DNA of 64,000 nucleotides. Source: a virus. Made by a program: the position numbers and the translations under genes. The stretch lies in IMG/VR virus record IMGVR_UViG_3300029893_000005, positions 7,904 through 71,903 of that record. One strand, 5' to 3'. The notes beneath the pieces were generated by a model that did no database searches, was not told the DNA's origin, and worked only from the letters and a program-made list of their open reading frames with translations. Positions 5,342 through 12,690 of the stretch are shown piece by piece (within the stretch, counting starts at the first letter, position 1; each line of letters opens with the position of its first letter).

Positions 5342-5860
5342 GTGCCCACCTACGAGTTCAAGTGCGGCGGGGGTCACTACCTGGAGTACACCTGCCCTAT
5401 GTCACAGAAGCCTGCTTCTGTGGAGTGCGAGTGTGGGGAGGAGGCCACCCAGGTCTTCGTGACCCCTCCCTACATCGATCGCACCCCCTGCCGCGAGTTC
5501 AGCGGCTTCGACGTCGGCCTCGGCCGCTCGTTCTCTTCCATGCGGGAGCGCAAGCAGTTCCTCAAGGAGAACGGGCTGCATGAATGGGGCCCGGAGCAGA
5601 GCGAGACCTACGACCGCAGGCTGCGTGATGAGCAGCAGAAGAAGAAGGATCTGGAGCGGTCGACCTACACGGACGGCACCATCAAGAAGCCCATGGGCCC
5701 GCTGCAGTTCGGCAACTTCCGCCTGGGGGCCATCAAGCCCGCCAAGCGGGACATCATGCCGGTCGAGGACCAGGGTAAGACCATTCGTCTCGACGAGCAG
5801 CCCCCGAAGGGGCAGCATCACCCGGCGCTGAAGCCGCGGGTGGCGAAGGCGATCAAGTAG
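5342..5860 (+). CDS. FmdB-family zinc-ribbon protein
   Basis: GTG start gives MPTYEFKC...H...CECG, the typical FmdB N-terminus. AAGGAG SD. Confidence 0.75.
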   Translation: MPTYEFKCGGGHYLEYTCPMSQKPASVECECGEEATQVFVTPPYIDRTPCREFSGFDVGLGRSFSSMRERKQFLKENGLHEWGPEQSETYDRRLRDEQQKKKDLERSTYTDGTIKKPMGPLQFGNFRLGAIKPAKRDIMPVEDQGKTIRLDEQPPKGQHHPALKPRVAKAIK

Positions 5861-5900
5861 CACGGCGGCGGCGCTCGACATAGGAAAGGGGGCTATACCC

Positions 5901-6417
5901 GTGGCGATACTGGTGCGGAATGCTCGTTACGTTGTGCCCGATCCTGTGTCTGGGTGCTGGAACTGGACCAGAAGCCTCAACGACCAGGGTTACGGACAGT
6001 TCACTTACGCTGGTAAGACGTATCGCGCCCACAGGGCGCTGTACGCCTACTACACAGGCGAGGACGTTCGGGGAAAAGTGCTCTGTCATCGTTGCGACAA
6101 CAGGGCTTGCTGCAATCCCGGGCATATCATTGCGGGCACACAGGCCGACAACCTTCGAGACATGGTGTCCAAGGGCCGCCACTGGACGGTCAACAATCCC
6201 GACAAGCGCCCACGGGGGGACGCGCACTGGACGAAGCGCACCCCCATCTCGGAACCATACGGGTTCTCGGAAGAAGCGGCTGACGGCGGAGCAGGTGCAG
6301 CAGGTAGAGGAGCGCATGGCGGAGGGGGCGTCTACTCTTCGCACACTGGCGGAAGAGTTCTCAGTGAGCATGTCCACCATTAACCGTATTCGCCGCAAGG
6401 CGGGGGCATACGCCTGA
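5901..6417 (+). pseudogene. HNH endonuclease with C-terminal HTH, split by a +1 frameshift
   Basis: Frame 5901 carries CWNW...GYG...RAHR...LCHRCDNRACCNPGH...DN. The HTH (LTAEQV...TLAEEFSVSMSTINRI) is in the +1 frame and ends at a TGA that overlaps the portal ATG. A C5 run lies at 6241-6245. Confidence 0.7.
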
Positions 6418-8408
6418 TGGCTGCCGCGTTGGATTATCTGGGCTACGTGAAGCAGAAGGGCCAGAACCAACTGGTCTCCCCTGTGACACGCCCGCACGAT
6501 GCCGATGGGTCGGGCGCCTACCTTTCCGATACCGCCCGCTTCGTCCTCGAACTGCTCGACGAAGCCACGCGCTACCGCAAGCCCTTCTCCGACCAGTGGA
6601 GCAAGTACTACAGCCGGTACCGCGGCAACACCTGGAAGCCCACCGACCTGCCTCGGGCGCAGCGGTGGAAGGCCTACCTGACGGTCAACTACTCCCAGTC
6701 CATCATCGAGACCATCCTGGCGGTGCTGTTCGGCAGCCCGCCCAAGATCGTCTTCAGTGCCACGGCACGGGAGCAACACCCCTACGTCGAGACCATTCAG
6801 GCGGCGATGGACAGCGTGTGGCGCCGCGCCAAGGGCTCCCGCCACACCCTCAATGCCTTCAAGAACGCTTGTATCTACGGTACCGGGTACCTGAAAATCT
6901 GGTGGGACGAGACGGCTGAGGACGGCAAAGGCGGTATCCGCTTCGATCTGGTGCCCACCGAGAACATCTGGGTGGACCCGATGGCGGACAACCTGGACCG
7001 GGCCGAATACGTCATCGAGGTCAAGCGGGTCCCGCTCTCCTACATCCGCCGCAACTACCCGGAGCGCGGCAAGTACGTGCGCACGGGTACCGCGAAGGAG
7101 CAGGCCTCCTACGCCGAGATGAAGGCGACCGGCATGTTCAGCCGCGACCCGCAGGGCCCAGCCACCCTGGTGTCGGCCACCTACGGGGTGCAGCCCCTCA
7201 TCAACTACGGCGAAGCCTTCGGCACCGCTACACCCTCGGTGGGCCAGTCGCAGGAGCAGTGGTGCGATCTCTACGAGGTGTGGTACCGGGATCACTCGAT
7301 GGTGACCGAGACCCTGCCTATCCAGATCGGCGTCGACCCGAACACCGGGCAGCCGCAGGTGATCATGCATACGGTCACCCGCAAGCGGTACCCCAACGGG
7401 CGGGTGTTCCACTATGCCGGCGGGGTGTGCCTCGACGACGGCCCGGCTCCGTACACCAAGTGGCCCTACGTCAAGTTCACCTTCAACCCGATGCCGGGTG
7501 AGTTCTACGGCCAGGGCGCTATGGAGATCCTGCGGGACCTCCAGATCGAACTCGACAAGCGGCGCTCCGACATCGTGAACCACGCCAACCTGATGAGCAA
7601 CGCGGTCTGGATCGTCGATCGCGGCTCCCAGGTGGACCGTCGCATGCTGACCAACGAGCCCGGCCTCGTCATCGAGAAGAACCAGGGCACCGAGGTGCGC
7701 CGCGAGTCCCCCATGCAGCTCCCCAACTGGATGCTGCAGGCGGTGGACATGACCATCCGCGACCTGCGCGAGGTCATCGGGGTGCCGGCCACGGCTTCCG
7801 GCCAGCCCCCTCGTGGCGTGCGCAGCGGCAGCGGCTTCGAGGCGGCCCAGCAGATCGCCAACACCCGCATCCACCTGCTCGGACTGTTGATGAAGGACTC
7901 CCTGGAGGACCTCGCGGGTATCTGCGTGGCCCTGATGCAGCAGAAGTACACCCGTCCCCGCATCGTGCGGCTGGTGGGCAGTAACGGCACGCCCTACTGG
8001 GTGCCATTCGACCAGCACGCCGCCCGCGGTGACTGGGACATCGAAGTCGAGGTCGACTCCATGAGCGCGTTCCTGCGGGCGGCCCGCGCCCAGCAGGCCA
8101 TCCAGCTCTACCAGTTGCAACTGCTCGACAAGCGGGGCGCCCTGGAGGGAGTGCAGTGGCCCAATCGTGAGGCGGTGCTGCGGCGCATGGGCGACATGAG
8201 CGGCAGCGGGATCGAGGATTACGATGGAAGTCCTGGAGTGCCCAACCGCGATCGCTCTGATCAGTCCGGGTACGCTCTGTCTGTTCGGAAGGCTGCTCCT
8301 GCAGGTCCCGGAGCCGCACCTCCGAGTCCTGCTGGAGCCATGCCTGCTTCGATTCCTCCCATCGGCGGAACCCCGGGTGGTTATCCTCCTCCGCCCGGTG
8401 GCGGATAA
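6417..8408 (+). CDS. Portal protein (P22-like/podovirus type) with a Pro/Gly-rich C-terminal tail
   Basis: 663 aa with W..YY..YRG, NAFKNACIYGTGYLKIWWD and P...FYGQG motifs; lies upstream of scaffold and capsid. Confidence 0.85.
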   Translation: MAAALDYLGYVKQKGQNQLVSPVTRPHDADGSGAYLSDTARFVLELLDEATRYRKPFSDQWSKYYSRYRGNTWKPTDLPRAQRWKAYLTVNYSQSIIETILAVLFGSPPKIVFSATAREQHPYVETIQAAMDSVWRRAKGSRHTLNAFKNACIYGTGYLKIWWDETAEDGKGGIRFDLVPTENIWVDPMADNLDRAEYVIEVKRVPLSYIRRNYPERGKYVRTGTAKEQASYAEMKATGMFSRDPQGPATLVSATYGVQPLINYGEAFGTATPSVGQSQEQWCDLYEVWYRDHSMVTETLPIQIGVDPNTGQPQVIMHTVTRKRYPNGRVFHYAGGVCLDDGPAPYTKWPYVKFTFNPMPGEFYGQGAMEILRDLQIELDKRRSDIVNHANLMSNAVWIVDRGSQVDRRMLTNEPGLVIEKNQGTEVRRESPMQLPNWMLQAVDMTIRDLREVIGVPATASGQPPRGVRSGSGFEAAQQIANTRIHLLGLLMKDSLEDLAGICVALMQQKYTRPRIVRLVGSNGTPYWVPFDQHAARGDWDIEVEVDSMSAFLRAARAQQAIQLYQLQLLDKRGALEGVQWPNREAVLRRMGDMSGSGIEDYDGSPGVPNRDRSDQSGYALSVRKAAPAGPGAAPPSPAGAMPASIPPIGGTPGGYPPPPGGG

Positions 8409-8442
8409 TCGGTGGAGCGAGAATTAGGGAGGTTGTGAAGAT

Positions 8443-8925
8443 ATGATGCCTGGAATGGGGATGCCCCCGCAGGGGGGCCCTCCCGGACAGCCCGACCCGC
8501 AGAAGATGATGGCGCTGATGGCGGCCATGCAGCAAATGCGCGGTGGCGGAGGCCCTCCCGGTGTGCCGGGCATGGGGGCTCCGCCCATGCCGCCCAACGC
8601 CCAGGGCCCCCCACCGATGGGGATGCCGGTGCCGAGCATGGGGGCTCCGATGGGGCCGCCGCCCGGTCCGCCCATCACCCGCCCCGGCATGTCGGACGGC
8701 CTCAACAAGGGGCTGCTGATGATGGTCAACATCGGTCAGCAGATCCTGCGGCAGATGGACCCCGCCTCGGAGCCCGCCGACCGGCTGGCTTCGGTGCTGC
8801 GCGACCTCGACGAGATTCTGGCCCGGATGAATTCCTCTTCGATGGGGTCGTTCGGGCCGGACGGACCGCTGCCGGACCGCGGGCTCCCCCGCGAGCCCGA
8901 CCAGCCGGCCATGAGTCCGCGATAG
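8443..8925 (+). CDS. Met/Pro/Gly-rich low-complexity protein with a short helical C-terminus
   Basis: 160-aa ORF with GGGAGG SD. Confidence 0.6.
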   Translation: MMPGMGMPPQGGPPGQPDPQKMMALMAAMQQMRGGGGPPGVPGMGAPPMPPNAQGPPPMGMPVPSMGAPMGPPPGPPITRPGMSDGLNKGLLMMVNIGQQILRQMDPASEPADRLASVLRDLDEILARMNSSSMGSFGPDGPLPDRGLPREPDQPAMSPR

Positions 8926-8934
8926 GAGATACGC

Positions 8935-9333
8935 ATGCGGCTTATCTTCGAGCATCACGACGGACACGGCCTGAACGACGCCATCACTATCACCTGCGAC
9001 GAGCAGGATCCGAACGGCGGCGGGGCATCGCATGCATACCGGGCGACAATCCAAGTGCATTCGGGTATCCCATTTGTAGAAGCGGCAGCAGAGCCGGTGT
9101 TGGACATTCAGTTCCAGCATGGCCCACGCCACGTCGAGGGCTCGAAACCCGGCGTCACCGAGGCGGTGCTGTACGCGATCCTCCTCGACCGCCTGAAGGC
9201 GTTCCAGGCCGGGCCGTTTCCACATCCCGAGAACGAGCGACAGATCGCGGCTCTGGAGGAGTGTCTCGCGTCCACCAAGCGCCGGGCAGACGAGCGGGCA
9301 GCCCGCGGCGTGCTCGGCAAGAACCTGAGATAA
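8935..9333 (+). CDS. tad1: Tad1-like anti-Thoeris/anti-CBASS signal-sponge protein
   Basis: GGASHAY...IQFQHGPR...GVTE...LLDRLKAFQAGPF..EN......EE.L....RR...R..RGVLG closely matches the Tad1 family pattern as recalled. Confidence 0.8.
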   Translation: MRLIFEHHDGHGLNDAITITCDEQDPNGGGASHAYRATIQVHSGIPFVEAAAEPVLDIQFQHGPRHVEGSKPGVTEAVLYAILLDRLKAFQAGPFPHPENERQIAALEECLASTKRRADERAARGVLGKNLR

Positions 9334-9393
9334 GTCGTGAAGAAAAGAATCAGGAGACGGCTCCTGCTCCTGAGAAGGAAAAGAGGAGCGTAC

Positions 9394-9422
9394 TATACAA
9401 TATGCTGCCCGTGTGGTAGTAT
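9394..9422 (+). promoter_or_regulatory. Putative sigma70-type promoter for scaffold/capsid
   Basis: TATACA (9394-9399), 17-bp spacer, TG-n-TAGTAT (9417-9422). Confidence 0.45.
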
Positions 9423-9439
9423 AGGTCCGGAGGCAAAAG

Positions 9440-10600
9440 ATGGGACTCATTGATCCGATCACGGGCGTGACCACCGTACAGGGCGTCACCCAGCCCGACA
9501 CCAGCAGCATGGGGGGCGCCAGCGCCGTCCCCGCCTCGGTCTCCGCGGGTAACGCGGGCGCCGGGTCGGTGATGTATCCGGGCGCTACGCCGGCCTCTCC
9601 CTCCCCGAGCCCCGAAGTGGCCGCCCACCTGGGTTCGTCCCAGGGTTCCATGCTCTACGGGCAGAACGCCCCGCCCCAGGGCGAGCCCGCCGTCAGCGGG
9701 GTGCAGATCCCGCACTCGAACGTCGAACAGACGCCGGCTTCTGGCTACCACCAGCCGCCCCCGCAGCAGGTGCCGGAGTCGCAGGTGCAGGGCGTGCAGT
9801 TCCAGCAGCCCTACGCCCAGCAGCCGCTGTACGGCCTGGACCCCTGGCAGGCGCAGATGGAAATCTACGCCCTGCAGCAGGCGGTCGACCAGTACGAGAA
9901 CTACTTCCGCCAGTACGGCGAGATCGACCGCATCCTGCGCTCCGACCCGAGCAAGATGCAGCGGGTCATGGAGGTCATCCGCGGCGGCGGTACCCCCGAG
10001 CAGGTGCAGGCCGCGGCGGCGGAGGAGGCGGCCAAGCCGCCCAGCCCCGAGGCTCAGGCCGCAGGCACCGCCCCGCCCGTCAACTTCGCTCGGACCCCCG
10101 AGTATCAGGCGCTGCAGCGGGAGATCCAGAGTCTCAAGCAGGAGACCGCTGCGGCCCGCCATCAGGCCGAGGTGCTGCGGTACCGCAACCAGATGGACGA
10201 CATGCAGGCTCGTTACGGCCCCGCCTTCGATCGTCGTGCCGTGGCGGCTCACGCCATGCGCATCGGGACCGACGATCTCGAACAGGCTTTCGCCAGCCTC
10301 ATCGGACAGACCGTGATCTCCGAGGGGATGAAGAGACGGCAGCAGGCTTGGGCACAGGCCCGGCAGCCGCAGTACGCCCCTCCCGCCGCTCCGGGACCCA
10401 ACGTCATTCCCCATCCCGCCATGGTCGCCCAGCAGGCGCCGGCTCCTGCCGCCCCTCCCGGGGTCAGGGTCGAGCCTCCGGGTGCTCGTGCCGGGGTGGC
10501 GCCTGCGGCTCCCGAGCCCGCCCCCCAGCGGTCGCGGGACTGGACGCAGGTGACCAACCGAGTGGCCGCCGGTCTTCGGGCCGGCTTCGGCGGCGCCTAG
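9440..10600 (+). CDS. Putative capsid scaffolding protein
   Basis: Pro/Ala/Gln-rich with a central coiled coil, directly upstream of the major capsid gene. Confidence 0.6.
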   Translation: MGLIDPITGVTTVQGVTQPDTSSMGGASAVPASVSAGNAGAGSVMYPGATPASPSPSPEVAAHLGSSQGSMLYGQNAPPQGEPAVSGVQIPHSNVEQTPASGYHQPPPQQVPESQVQGVQFQQPYAQQPLYGLDPWQAQMEIYALQQAVDQYENYFRQYGEIDRILRSDPSKMQRVMEVIRGGGTPEQVQAAAAEEAAKPPSPEAQAAGTAPPVNFARTPEYQALQREIQSLKQETAAARHQAEVLRYRNQMDDMQARYGPAFDRRAVAAHAMRIGTDDLEQAFASLIGQTVISEGMKRRQQAWAQARQPQYAPPAAPGPNVIPHPAMVAQQAPAPAAPPGVRVEPPGARAGVAPAAPEPAPQRSRDWTQVTNRVAAGLRAGFGGA

Positions 10601-10636
10601 CGTAGGCGACTCTAGCAGAAACAAAGGAGCACGGAT

Positions 10637-11587
10637 ATGTCTCTCGATACCCTCTCGTCGGTGACCTACCGGGAGATTCTCCCCTACGTCGTCGATCAGG
10701 TTCTCCTGAGCAACCCGACGCTGGCGCTGATGTTCCAGAACACCGTCTTCCTCGACGGCGGAACGCACATCTCGCAGCCCATCGTCATCAACAAGAACTC
10801 CACCCCGGCCTCGTACAGCGGTGCGGATCCGCTGAACATGGCCTTCGACGACGAACTCACCTCGTTCGAGTTCAACTGGGCTCAGTATTACGCGACCATC
10901 GCGTACACGGGCCTGGACGATCTGCGCAACGGCGGCGAGAACGCGGTGGCCAACCTGCTCAAGATCCGCTCCCAGATCGCGGAGTACAGCCTCCGCGAGA
11001 CCATGGGCTCGGACCTGCAGGGCGACGGCACCGGCAACTCCAACAAGGCCATGACGGGCCTGTCGGCCGCGATCGACGACTCCACCAACGTGGCGACCTA
11101 CGGCAACGTGTCGCGCACCACGGTCACCGCGATCCGCGCCCAGTACAGCGCCAACGGCGGCGTGGGCCGCGGGCTCACCATCCCGCTGCTCATCACCAAC
11201 TACCAGAACTGCAGCAAGGACAACGACCGGCCGACGCACCACGTCACCACGCCCGGCATGTTCAGCCGGTACGTCCAACTGCTGACGCCCACCATCCGCA
11301 CGGGCGACGACGCCACGGCCAACATGGGGCACCCCAACGTGCTGTTCATGATGCGTCCGGTGATCGCCGACGATCAGGTGGCGACCACGCCCAACCACCG
11401 CTGGTGGATGATCAACATGCGGCACTGGACCTTCTACGTCCACCGCGCCCGCAACTTCATGTTCGTGCCCTTCGCTCGCGTGACGGGCCAGGACGTGGCG
11501 CTGGCGCACATCCTGTTCGCGGGTCAGCCGATCTGCGACCAGCCCCGCCTGCAGGGCCAGATCCGCGATCTGGACCCGAACGCCTAG
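10637..11587 (+). CDS. Major capsid protein (HK97 fold)
   Basis: DQVLLSNPTL...DGGTHISQPI...YSGADPL...FNWAQYYATI...L.GDGTG...GL pattern; strongly biased codons; AAGGAG SD. Confidence 0.85.
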   Translation: MSLDTLSSVTYREILPYVVDQVLLSNPTLALMFQNTVFLDGGTHISQPIVINKNSTPASYSGADPLNMAFDDELTSFEFNWAQYYATIAYTGLDDLRNGGENAVANLLKIRSQIAEYSLRETMGSDLQGDGTGNSNKAMTGLSAAIDDSTNVATYGNVSRTTVTAIRAQYSANGGVGRGLTIPLLITNYQNCSKDNDRPTHHVTTPGMFSRYVQLLTPTIRTGDDATANMGHPNVLFMMRPVIADDQVATTPNHRWWMINMRHWTFYVHRARNFMFVPFARVTGQDVALAHILFAGQPICDQPRLQGQIRDLDPNA

Positions 11588-11613
11588 TCTCGTAACGGAA
11601 GGACGGTCCTGAC

Positions 11614-11856
11614 ATGCACGGTTCACATCACGGTGAGATCAGCGGCCTGTCCTTCTCCTTCGGGCTGATGGGTCTCGGGGGTGACGAGGAGCGCATGACG
11701 CCTCCCGGCACCCCTGGGATGCCAGCCCACCTGTGCATGAACGAATGCGGGGAAGACCTGCGGCAGGGCATGTACGGCAACCGAGTTCCAGGCCCGCAGG
11801 AGGGCATGTTCCGCCCCAACGGAATCTGGCACGGGACCGACCCCGAATACGTGTAG
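11614..11856 (+). CDS. Small Gly/Pro/Met-rich hypothetical protein
   Basis: 80-aa ORF with GGAAGGA SD directly after the capsid gene. Confidence 0.55.
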   Translation: MHGSHHGEISGLSFSFGLMGLGGDEERMTPPGTPGMPAHLCMNECGEDLRQGMYGNRVPGPQEGMFRPNGIWHGTDPEYV

Positions 11857-11868
11857 GAGGAAACGACA

Positions 11869-12117
11869 ATGGGATTCGAAGCAGTTCCCGGCGAGGTCAA
11901 CTGGAACGGCAGCATGCCGCCCCCCGGCCTCTGGGACCCGCAGCGCCTGACGCAGGACTACGAGGCGAAGATGCACACCGCGGGCGGCTCCCTCGGCAAC
12001 ATGCACTTCGAGGACGGCTACAGCCACCCCGGCAAGGGGCCGCTGCCGGCCGGCTGGACCCAGACCACCGGCGTCAAGAACGACCCCAACGGCCTCGGCC
12101 ACCTCTGTGGCGGCTAG
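11869..12117 (+). CDS. Small Gly/Pro-rich hypothetical protein
   Basis: 82-aa ORF with AGGAGG SD. Confidence 0.6.
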   Translation: MGFEAVPGEVNWNGSMPPPGLWDPQRLTQDYEAKMHTAGGSLGNMHFEDGYSHPGKGPLPAGWTQTTGVKNDPNGLGHLCGG

Positions 12118-12159
12118 GGTCAGAAGTCTTCACCTGAAGTAAAGGAGCGATTCTGAGAG

Positions 12160-12690
12160 ATGGCCTACTCCGATATTCTGGGGATGAACCCCGCGTTCGT
12201 CACCAAGACGACGTACAACGACAGCCGCTCGCTCACGGCCCTCCCCCGTCTGGAGGAGGACACCCTCGGGCTGCTCCGCTGGCAGATCGACCCGAGTCTG
12301 GGCATCCGCTGCCTGCGCTTCGTCGGGGTGGCGGCAAGTTCGACTGCCGACGTGGCGGACGGCGACGCCCTGGCGTTCGACGACAAGTACAAGCGGAGCG
12401 TCACCAACGACGTCTCCGACGCCGATCGCAACCAGCCGGCAGGCGTGGGCATCGGCGCCATCACCATCGGCAACAAGGGCTGGATCCAGTGCTACGGCTA
12501 CCACGACGCCATCAAGACCAGCGGTGGCGACAACATCGTGGACGGCGATTCCCTGATCCTGTCGGCCACCGACAGGACGGTGGAGCGTGTGGCCAGCGGC
12601 ACGGCCCCCACCCACAAGATCATCGGCGTGGCGGTCACGGACGACGTGGACGCGGCCAACACCGTCGAGGGCTTCATCGAGTGCCTGTAA
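12160..12690 (+). CDS. Putative capsid cement/decoration protein
   Basis: AGVGIGAI..G..GWIQ.YG...AI....GD.L...IIGVAV pattern typical of cement proteins that follow capsid genes. Confidence 0.6.
   Translation: MAYSDILGMNPAFVTKTTYNDSRSLTALPRLEEDTLGLLRWQIDPSLGIRCLRFVGVAASSTADVADGDALAFDDKYKRSVTNDVSDADRNQPAGVGIGAITIGNKGWIQCYGYHDAIKTSGGDNIVDGDSLILSATDRTVERVASGTAPTHKIIGVAVTDDVDAANTVEGFIECL

Follow-up and report, generated by a model that had tools for sequence, protein, structure and literature searches.

Which immune signal would a phage sponge protein capture when its gene lies among the genes for the phage head? The question is raised by a 64,000-nucleotide stretch of viral DNA, called the window here, that spans positions 7,904 to 71,903 of IMG/VR virus record IMGVR_UViG_3300029893_000005. 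The record is linear and 79,468 bp long, with an estimated completeness of 74% and a G+C content (GC) of about 65-66%. On its plus strand the window carries an open reading frame (ORF) of 132 codons (Table 1), which an earlier note had likened to Tad1, the anti-Thoeris sponge family, and had placed between portal and scaffold genes. We consider it very probable that the product is a stand-alone Tad1 sponge that would bind glyco-cyclic ADP-ribose (gcADPR), lacks the residues used for cyclic trinucleotides (CTNs) and for the hexamer, and would be made together with the head proteins.

The 132-aa protein is almost certainly a member of the Tad1 family. When the Protein Data Bank (PDB) was searched with phmmer, the chains of CbTad1 (7uav, 8kbe-h) were matched at E ~8e-13 and CmTad1 (8kbb) at E 5.7e-7, while the matches not labelled Tad1 were PhiKZ gp184, which was weak (E 0.02), and chains of ribosomal protein S20, which were non-significant (E 0.8). 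A tblastn search of 50,697 phage records matched 50 of them, including SPG24, in which the gene is annotated as Tad1, and SBSphiJ7, whose Tad1 was matched at 37% identity over 81 aa (1e-4). The protein also matched phrog_2428 (1e-18). Its family numbered 215 proteins in a 90%-clustered collection, and a 50%-clustered collection contained 1583 of its representatives (E<=1e-3); an existing catalogue lists 1,587 non-redundant Tad1 homologues from IMG/VR (PMC12393519). The motifs by which the family had first been recognized are all present, namely GGASHAY (residues 29-35), IQFQHGPR (58-65), DRLKAFQAGPF..PEN (85-100), EECL (108-111) and RRADERAARGVLGKN (116-130). Three of the spacings given for them needed correction, to R-x7-GV instead of 'R...GV', GPF-x3-EN instead of 'GPF..EN' and L-x2-I instead of 'L.I'.

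The predicted fold led to the same family. An AlphaFold2 model of the single chain, computed with 83 homologues as input, had a predicted local distance difference test score (pLDDT) of 95.4 and a predicted template-modelling score (pTM) of 0.84. It consists of four strands (residues 2-4, 17-21, 34-41 and 51-60) followed by two helices (76-92 and 98-123). In a Foldseek comparison with the PDB the 20 top matches were all Tad1, and the next match, which is not a Tad1, had an E value of 0.045. The structural comparison with Tad1 that the earlier note had proposed was thus borne out, the model superposing best on CbTad1 in complex with 1''-2' gcADPR (7uaw_A; template-modelling (TM) scores 0.83/0.87, root-mean-square deviation 2.0 Å, 132 columns). 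Membership in the Acb2 family was considered and rejected. Acb2, a hexamer with pockets for cyclic dinucleotides (CDNs) and CTNs, does share the two-helix hairpin and is joined with Tad1 in PF24729, but no Acb2 chain was found among the PDB matches at E<=10, PF24729 gave no score, and the AlphaFold2 model has the Tad1-type N-terminal beta-sheet.

Two side observations concern the family at large. The wrong annotation 'ABC transporter ATPase' is widespread among Tad1 homologues in phage records, as in MW478292.1 (positions 5965-6336; locus L001) and in the OLIVR5 and SXP01 records, and the molecule name of PDB entry 7UAV is likewise 'ABC transporter ATPase'. The N-terminal motif HHDGHGLN (residues 5-14; window positions 8947-8976), in which H7, D9 and G12 were invariant in 83 sequences, is specific to a mostly high-GC subfamily and is absent from SBSphiJ7 and Clostridium Tad1; CmTad1 crystals contain a zinc ion.

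Li et al. described one common pocket per Tad1 protomer that is occupied by gcADPR and by 2',3'-cyclic GMP-AMP (2',3'-cGAMP); in CbTad1 the F82A/N92A or R109A/R113A substitutions abolished binding, a closing loop contains R57, and a lid is made up of residues 116-122 (10.1101/2023.11.15.567273). These positions were transferred to the window protein through an alignment with CbTad1 that is ungapped over residues 52-131. The PDB chain index of CbTad1 equals the native number plus one, and the numbering was checked by F, N, R and R falling at 82, 92, 109 and 113. All five residues proved to be identical (F82 to F90, N92 to N100, R109 to R117, R113 to R121 and R57 to R65), and the lid (residues 124-130) reads RGVLGKN compared with RNVLGTN in CbTad1, L119 corresponding to L127. 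Conservation was assessed in an alignment of 262 relatives, composed of hits from the 90%- and 50%-clustered collections together with SBSphiJ7 Tad1, Bc431v3 orf166 and a Clostridium phage protein, a set that is biased toward the neighbourhood of the query. The pocket phenylalanine is present in 251 of these sequences, the asparagine in 239, R117 and R121 in 256 each, and R65 in 220. As judged from the aligned residues, the gcADPR/CDN pocket is intact. We predict that the protein probably binds and sequesters gcADPR (3'-cyclic ADP-ribose (3'cADPR) / 2'cADPR), and perhaps some CDNs would be bound in the same pocket.

The second pocket of Tad1 is different in the window protein. CTNs are held on the three-fold axis of the Tad1 hexamer, where cyclic triadenylate (cA3) or the cyclic trinucleotide cAAG is bound by R90 and T97 of CbTad1 (R88 and T95 of CmTad1) and C87, A91 and M92 stack on the bases; the hexamer is held together by the same region and by K96, Q98, E99, M102, W103 and K106 (10.1101/2023.11.15.567273). 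In that study R90A or T97A alone caused a marked drop in cA3 binding, and a mutant including E99A/M102A/W103A/K106A went from hexamer to dimers and lost CTN binding. The earlier note had found the helix after the EN motif to be divergent, and the alignment with CbTad1 confirms this, the helix reading ERQIAALEECLASTK where CbTad1 has ACALTHVEEALMWMN. Both phosphate ligands are replaced, R90/R88 by P98 and T97/T95 by A105 (CbTad1/CmTad1 numbering, the PDB chain index of CmTad1 being native plus 10, as checked by alignment). The base-stacking residues C87, A91 and M92 became H97, E101 and R102, so that the hydrophobic platform is now charged (E101 and R102). Among the hexamer-interface residues K96, M102 and W103 are replaced by A106, A112 and S113, while Q98, E99 and K106 have the kept or conservative counterparts E108, E109 and R116. 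Five of the eight hexamer contacts are therefore replaced (P, A, A, A and S) and three are kept or conservative.

With the phosphate ligands, the base platform and the Met/Trp contact all gone, the protein is predicted not to sequester cA3 or cAAG, and we regard the loss of binding to these molecules as likely. The residue comparison gives about even chances to a non-hexameric state; the protein may be a dimer or take up an alternative assembly. A change of ligand specificity, which had been suggested from the divergent helix, is upheld in the form of a predicted loss of CTN binding; it does not extend to gcADPR, since this helix forms the CTN pocket and the hexamer interface and not the gcADPR site. 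The site pattern of the nearest viral loci (L004-L009) is the opposite of that of the window protein: in their Tad1 a Gly replaces the pocket Asn (RFGRR compared with RFNRR), and the K/T/W trinucleotide site is kept.

Among characterized homologues, CbTad1 (PDB 7UAV, 7UAW, 8SMD and 8KBE-8KBH; Clostridium botulinum prophage) is the best match, at 31-34% identity. The two proteins have in common the fold of a beta-sheet and two helices, the F/N/R/R pocket, the loop arginine equivalent to R57 and the C-terminal lid. They differ at R90, T97 and the Met/Trp contacts (P98, A105, A112 and S113 in the window protein) and in the N-terminal strands, which in the window protein carry HHDGHGLN, and the cGAMP guanine contacts Q8 and L13 of CbTad1 are unmappable. 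CmTad1 (PDB 8KBB-8KBD; Clostridioides mangenotii prophage) belongs to the same family (TM ~0.75) and aligns without gaps in the C-terminal helices, but R88, T95, K96, C87, A91, M92, M102 and W103 are P98, A105, A106, H97, E101, R102, A112 and S113 in the window protein. The founding anti-Thoeris sponge, Tad1 of the Bacillus phage SBSphiJ7, is homologous and has the same pocket F, N, R and R. It differs in having a canonical R/T/W site, its N-terminal half is not alignable with the window protein, and its gene, unlike that in the window, is located outside the head module of a 153-kb Herelleviridae genome.

Could the protein nevertheless be a fully canonical Tad1 hexamer whose two kinds of pocket bind gcADPR, CDNs and CTNs alike? 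It has the family and the fold of CbTad1 and CmTad1, the four Tad1 homologues that Li et al. tested were all CTN binders, and both sites are retained in most homologues; E108, E109 and R116, moreover, are kept or conservative with respect to Q98/E99 and K106 of CmTad1. We consider such a hexamer quite unlikely in view of the R-to-P and T-to-A replacements, at positions where each single alanine mutant cut cA3 binding markedly, the charged base platform, and the replacement of the Met/Trp hexamer contacts by Ala and Ser. A different doubt concerns the first pocket, which might have been retuned from 3'cADPR to some other signal derived from ADP-ribose (ADPR) or another nucleotide, such as His-ADPR, N7-cADPR or another molecule. 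Sponge families are functionally plastic, a quarter of tested homologues having inhibited none of seven systems (PMC12393519), and the invariant H7, D9 and G12 of the HHDGHGLN motif are specific to the subfamily. Every pocket residue that is supported by mutation is nonetheless identical to that of CbTad1, and in a survey that included 20 Tad1 homologues the family inhibited type I Thoeris and CBASS (cyclic oligonucleotide-based antiphage signalling system), the other systems being highlighted for Tad2 (PMC12393519); a retuned pocket thus appears improbable.

The replaced CTN site is shared with many relatives. Of the two phosphate-binding positions, both are canonical (R and T) in 100 of the 262 relatives, both are lost in 130, and 32 are mixed. 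R, T and W occur together in 93 of the 262, and in 93% of cases the canonical pair comes with the tryptophan at position 113; the R/T/W triad is mostly either all present or all absent across the alignment. At the CTN positions of the lost set the residues vary (P/E/A, E/D/A and A/S/L), which suggests that constraint was relaxed and not that a new conserved site arose. The published frequency of CTN-site substitution among Tad1 homologues is 6% in a different sample (10.1101/2023.11.15.567273), and because our set is biased toward the query, the fraction of about one half is not directly comparable with that figure. In a tree built with the helix included, the proteins that lost the site group together (142 tips), whereas masking of positions 96-116 left the CTN states interspersed, with 63 changes. 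A single CTN-less clade is therefore not claimed; only the immediate group of the query (~13 proteins) was consistently CTN-less in both trees.

Where the gene is located was addressed in a survey of 82 loci, comprising 80 IMG/VR loci that encode relatives and two cultured phages; neighbouring ORFs were called and clustered, and the commonest clusters were annotated with PHROGs. The commonest neighbours of Tad1 were the terminase large subunit, portals of three families (phrog_64, 104 and 533), minor head proteins, the head maturation protease, scaffolding proteins (phrog_172 and 194) and major head proteins (phrog_10 and 422). At least 24 of the 82 loci have head-module genes on both sides of Tad1 (terminase, portal, minor-head or protease genes upstream and scaffold or major-head genes downstream), typically in the order portal, minor head protein or protease, Tad1, scaffold and major head protein, and a further 18 have them on one side only. 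The remaining 40 loci are mostly unannotated, and these counts are thus lower bounds. The same layout is seen in the cultured Clostridium phage vB_CpeS-1181, whose Tad1 gene (annotated 'ABC transporter ATPase') lies, with other genes in between, downstream of the portal and a head protein and upstream of the major capsid protein. A position inside the head operon, which had been called unusual, is therefore not so for this family.

When Tad1 proteins were collapsed at 70% identity (28 clusters), five clusters had the two-sided head arrangement and two the one-sided one, of which the L004-L009 cluster turns two-sided when the downstream 316-aa head protein (phrog_9953) is counted. These nearest viral loci (51% identity, 64% GC) have the order terminase, 740-aa ORF, 219 aa, Tad1, 403 aa and 316-aa head protein, the last belonging to the same PHROG as the major head protein of the window; a BLASTP comparison of the L004 proteins in the same positions with the portal and the scaffold candidate of the window gave no similarity. 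One Tad1 cluster (>=70% identity; L037-L060 and L069-L073; 20 loci, ~41% GC) occurs beside portals of phrog_64, 104 and 533. Its presence beside three portal families indicates a mobile accessory gene that moves between head modules. Other Tad1 genes are found among DNA-metabolism genes, as in L010 (helicase, Sak4), L011-L013 and L021 (UvsX-like recombinase) and Bc431v3 (DNA polymerase, recA), and where the nearest homologues occur on long contigs (P0007, P0026 and P0023), their flanks mostly lack Pfam annotation. There was no association between the head-slot position and CTN-site loss among the surveyed loci, canonical and lost forms both being found in the slot. That the window protein would belong to a large, mostly metagenomic set of dimeric Tad1 proteins that bind gcADPR only and, jointly, that the gap between portal and scaffold or capsid genes would be a general insertion hot spot for sponges, which would time their production to that of the capsid proteins triggering TIR immunity, is a doubtful generalization.

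In the window itself the Tad1 gene forms part of a same-strand run of portal, Pro/Gly/Met-rich (PGM-rich) protein, Tad1, scaffold candidate and major head protein. The gap between the stop of the PGM-rich gene and the Tad1 gene is only 9 nt, the gene has a Shine-Dalgarno sequence of its own, and neither a sigma-70-like promoter nor a plus-strand terminator was called in 5500-12200, the only terminator-like call being on the minus strand. From these features we infer co-transcription with the head genes, and the short gap and the own ribosome-binding site inside the head-gene run make co-production with head proteins most likely. The Tad1 protein made alongside the head proteins would then form dimers, and pockets at the dimer interface would bind and sequester gcADPR, the signal of the TIR-domain (Toll/interleukin-1 receptor) system Thoeris, leaving the host effector unactivated. 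Some CDNs would possibly be taken up by the same pocket, whereas cA3 and cAAG would stay unbound, the second pocket and the dimer-to-hexamer contacts having been replaced. Thoeris TIR proteins are reported to sense the capsid proteins of phages (PMC12578639), and SpbK, likewise a TIR protein, is reported to act via the SPbeta protein YonE (PMC12847820); a portal-to-capsid slot in unrelated head modules fits this recent finding of capsid sensing by TIR systems.

Several points weigh against this account. The N-terminal half of the protein was left unaligned by phmmer and was assigned through the fold alone. PF24729, the Pfam model of the Acb2/Tad1 hairpin, gave no score on the protein, which found no Pfam match even at E 10; because this model also misses most of the close relatives, Pfam is not usable as a test here. 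Tad1 homologues vary in their CDN range despite a kept core pocket (10.1101/2023.11.15.567273), which makes the CDN binding of the protein unpredictable. Other contacts could compensate for those replaced in the helix, and lost hexamer contacts do not prove a dimer. The predicted late expression, in step with the head proteins, was read from the gene order alone, and an AT-richer 106-nt spacer follows the Tad1 gene.

The location of the gene also invites the reading that Tad1 enters the capsid while the head is being assembled and is carried into the host together with the DNA so as to pre-empt signalling, which would be compatible with a sponge function. There are precedents. PhiKZ gp184 (PDB 8Y6V chain I) belongs to the inner vertex complex as a minor capsid protein (PMC11297242) and has been described as a Tad1 that is wedged in the capsid by its N-terminus, the head protease releasing the C-terminal part for injection (10.1101/2025.11.23.690004; PMC13282480); its C-terminal 60-80 residues are homologous to the window protein (E 0.02; phrog_22140, 0.0023) and to Bc431v3 orf166 (2e-9). 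Bc431v3 orf166, whose homology to Tad1 is strong (E 3e-31 against CmTad1), was detected by mass spectrometry in purified virions with 39% coverage; the preparation contained non-structural enzymes as well (PMC3601020). The gene in the window sits within the head-assembly module, and the PGM-rich ORF upstream shares its reading frame, with only a TAG and three codons between the two, so that occasional read-through of the TAG may fuse the sponge to the PGM-rich protein for packaging. A same-frame layout, on the other hand, is expected by chance in one case out of three and is not kept in L004-L009, and no suppressor tRNA for such read-through was found in the window. Whereas gp184 (230 aa) binds the capsid through its N-terminal part and has a cleavage site for the protease, the window protein consists of the 132-aa domain alone: the in-frame TAG at 8923-8925 fixes its start, its N-terminus aligns with that of stand-alone relatives, and an anchoring extension is absent. 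We therefore think virion packaging unlikely. As for a head-assembly or structural protein that has the Tad1 fold and no sponge function, the gene does lie between the portal gene and the scaffold candidate, and homologues are labelled 'structural protein' in several Bacillus phages (B. cereus phages) and in Lactococcus phage 1706. Ligand-contact residues that are near-invariant in the 262 relatives would be hard to explain without ligand binding, however, and favour it over a purely structural role; the same Tad1 gene (>=70% identity) occurs beside three unrelated portal families and others occur in DNA-metabolism regions, and gp184, linked as it is to the capsid, is dispensable in PhiKZ (10.1101/2025.11.23.690004). 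A purely structural role is highly improbable, and a sponge for gcADPR is the reading that we prefer.

N-terminal extensions are common among Tad1 homologues (P0004, P0008, P0153, P0123 and P0183). A conserved extension of ~85 aa is common to P0004 and P0008, the Tad1 part of which is 70% identical to the window protein, and P0153 has LRV/HEAT repeats fused ahead of Tad1. Such extensions could serve packaging or targeting in the manner of the gp184 extension, or be artefacts of gene calling.

The Tad1 family, homologues with a substituted CTN site and capsid-associated Tad1 are already known, and the known function of Tad1 is unchanged by this finding. With it a Tad1 has been assigned with confidence in an uncultivated high-GC phage, and the sequence alone shows which of the two known ligand sites has been kept. 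Its value lies in the residue-level prediction, in the frequent CTN loss among metagenomic relatives and in the recurrent portal-to-capsid slot. If confirmed, loss of the CTN/hexamer site (about half of the 262 nearest relatives) would be far commoner in metagenomic Tad1 than the reported 6%, and the slot could guide searches for new anti-defence genes at that position.

Table 1. The Tad1-family gene of the window and the features around it.
Feature	Position in window	Strand	Size	Evidence or remark
HNH endonuclease gene	5901..6383	+		directly upstream of portal gene; phrog_1872 at 1.2e-27, several HNH PHROGs
Portal protein gene, P22/SU10 type	6417..8408	+		PF16510 2.8e-40; phrog_156 1.9e-57
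Pro/Gly/Met-rich low-complexity protein gene	8443..8925	+	160 aa	no Pfam or PHROG match
Shine-Dalgarno sequence AGGAG	8924..8928	+		6 nt ahead of Tad1 start codon; read from sequence
Tad1-family sponge gene	8935..9333	+	132 aa	ORF confirmed
Spacer	9334..9439		106 nt	50% GC, genome ~66%; between Tad1 gene and scaffold candidate
Scaffold candidate gene, Ala/Pro/Gln-rich product	9440..10600	+	386 aa	by position only; no Pfam or PHROG match
Major head protein gene	10637..11587	+		phrog_9953 3.2e-53

The features of the locus are listed in Table 1. The start ATG of the Tad1 gene is the first start codon downstream of the in-frame TAG. Its G+C content at third codon positions (GC3) is 0.76 compared with 0.86-0.94 in the neighbouring head genes, which is somewhat below these, yet the gene is not foreign. 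Of the two flanking genes named in the earlier note, the portal was recovered by family searches, whereas the scaffold is assigned by position, with zero family matches. When the portal, the PGM-rich protein, the scaffold candidate, the major head protein and their neighbours were searched by tblastn against the 80-odd Tad1 loci, there were no matches, and hence no close relative of the phage for an analysis of synteny or covariation. A scan of genome contigs for a host signal with the single protein gave no relatives, and an alignment-based scan found only distant prophage copies of Tad1 (<=58% identity) in many phyla. Tad2 (PF11195) was not found in the 79-kb record, and a search of it for Sequestin (PF21825) gave no matches, as it also did in control genomes.

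The spacer downstream of the Tad1 gene contains short hairpins (9351-9366; GCTCCT...AGGAGC) and the AT-rich boxes TATACAAT and TAGTATAGG. No further copies of these boxes occur within the window, and a phage promoter motif could thus not be defined; the spacer may be a regulatory region or hold a promoter of its own for the scaffold and capsid genes. Near the HNH and portal region both strands also contain overlapping ORFs of greater length, such as one of 755 aa on the minus strand (5853-8120), which are artefacts of the high GC content. The C-terminal tail of the portal protein (~8230-8405) is Pro/Gly-rich and precedes the similarly composed PGM-rich protein.

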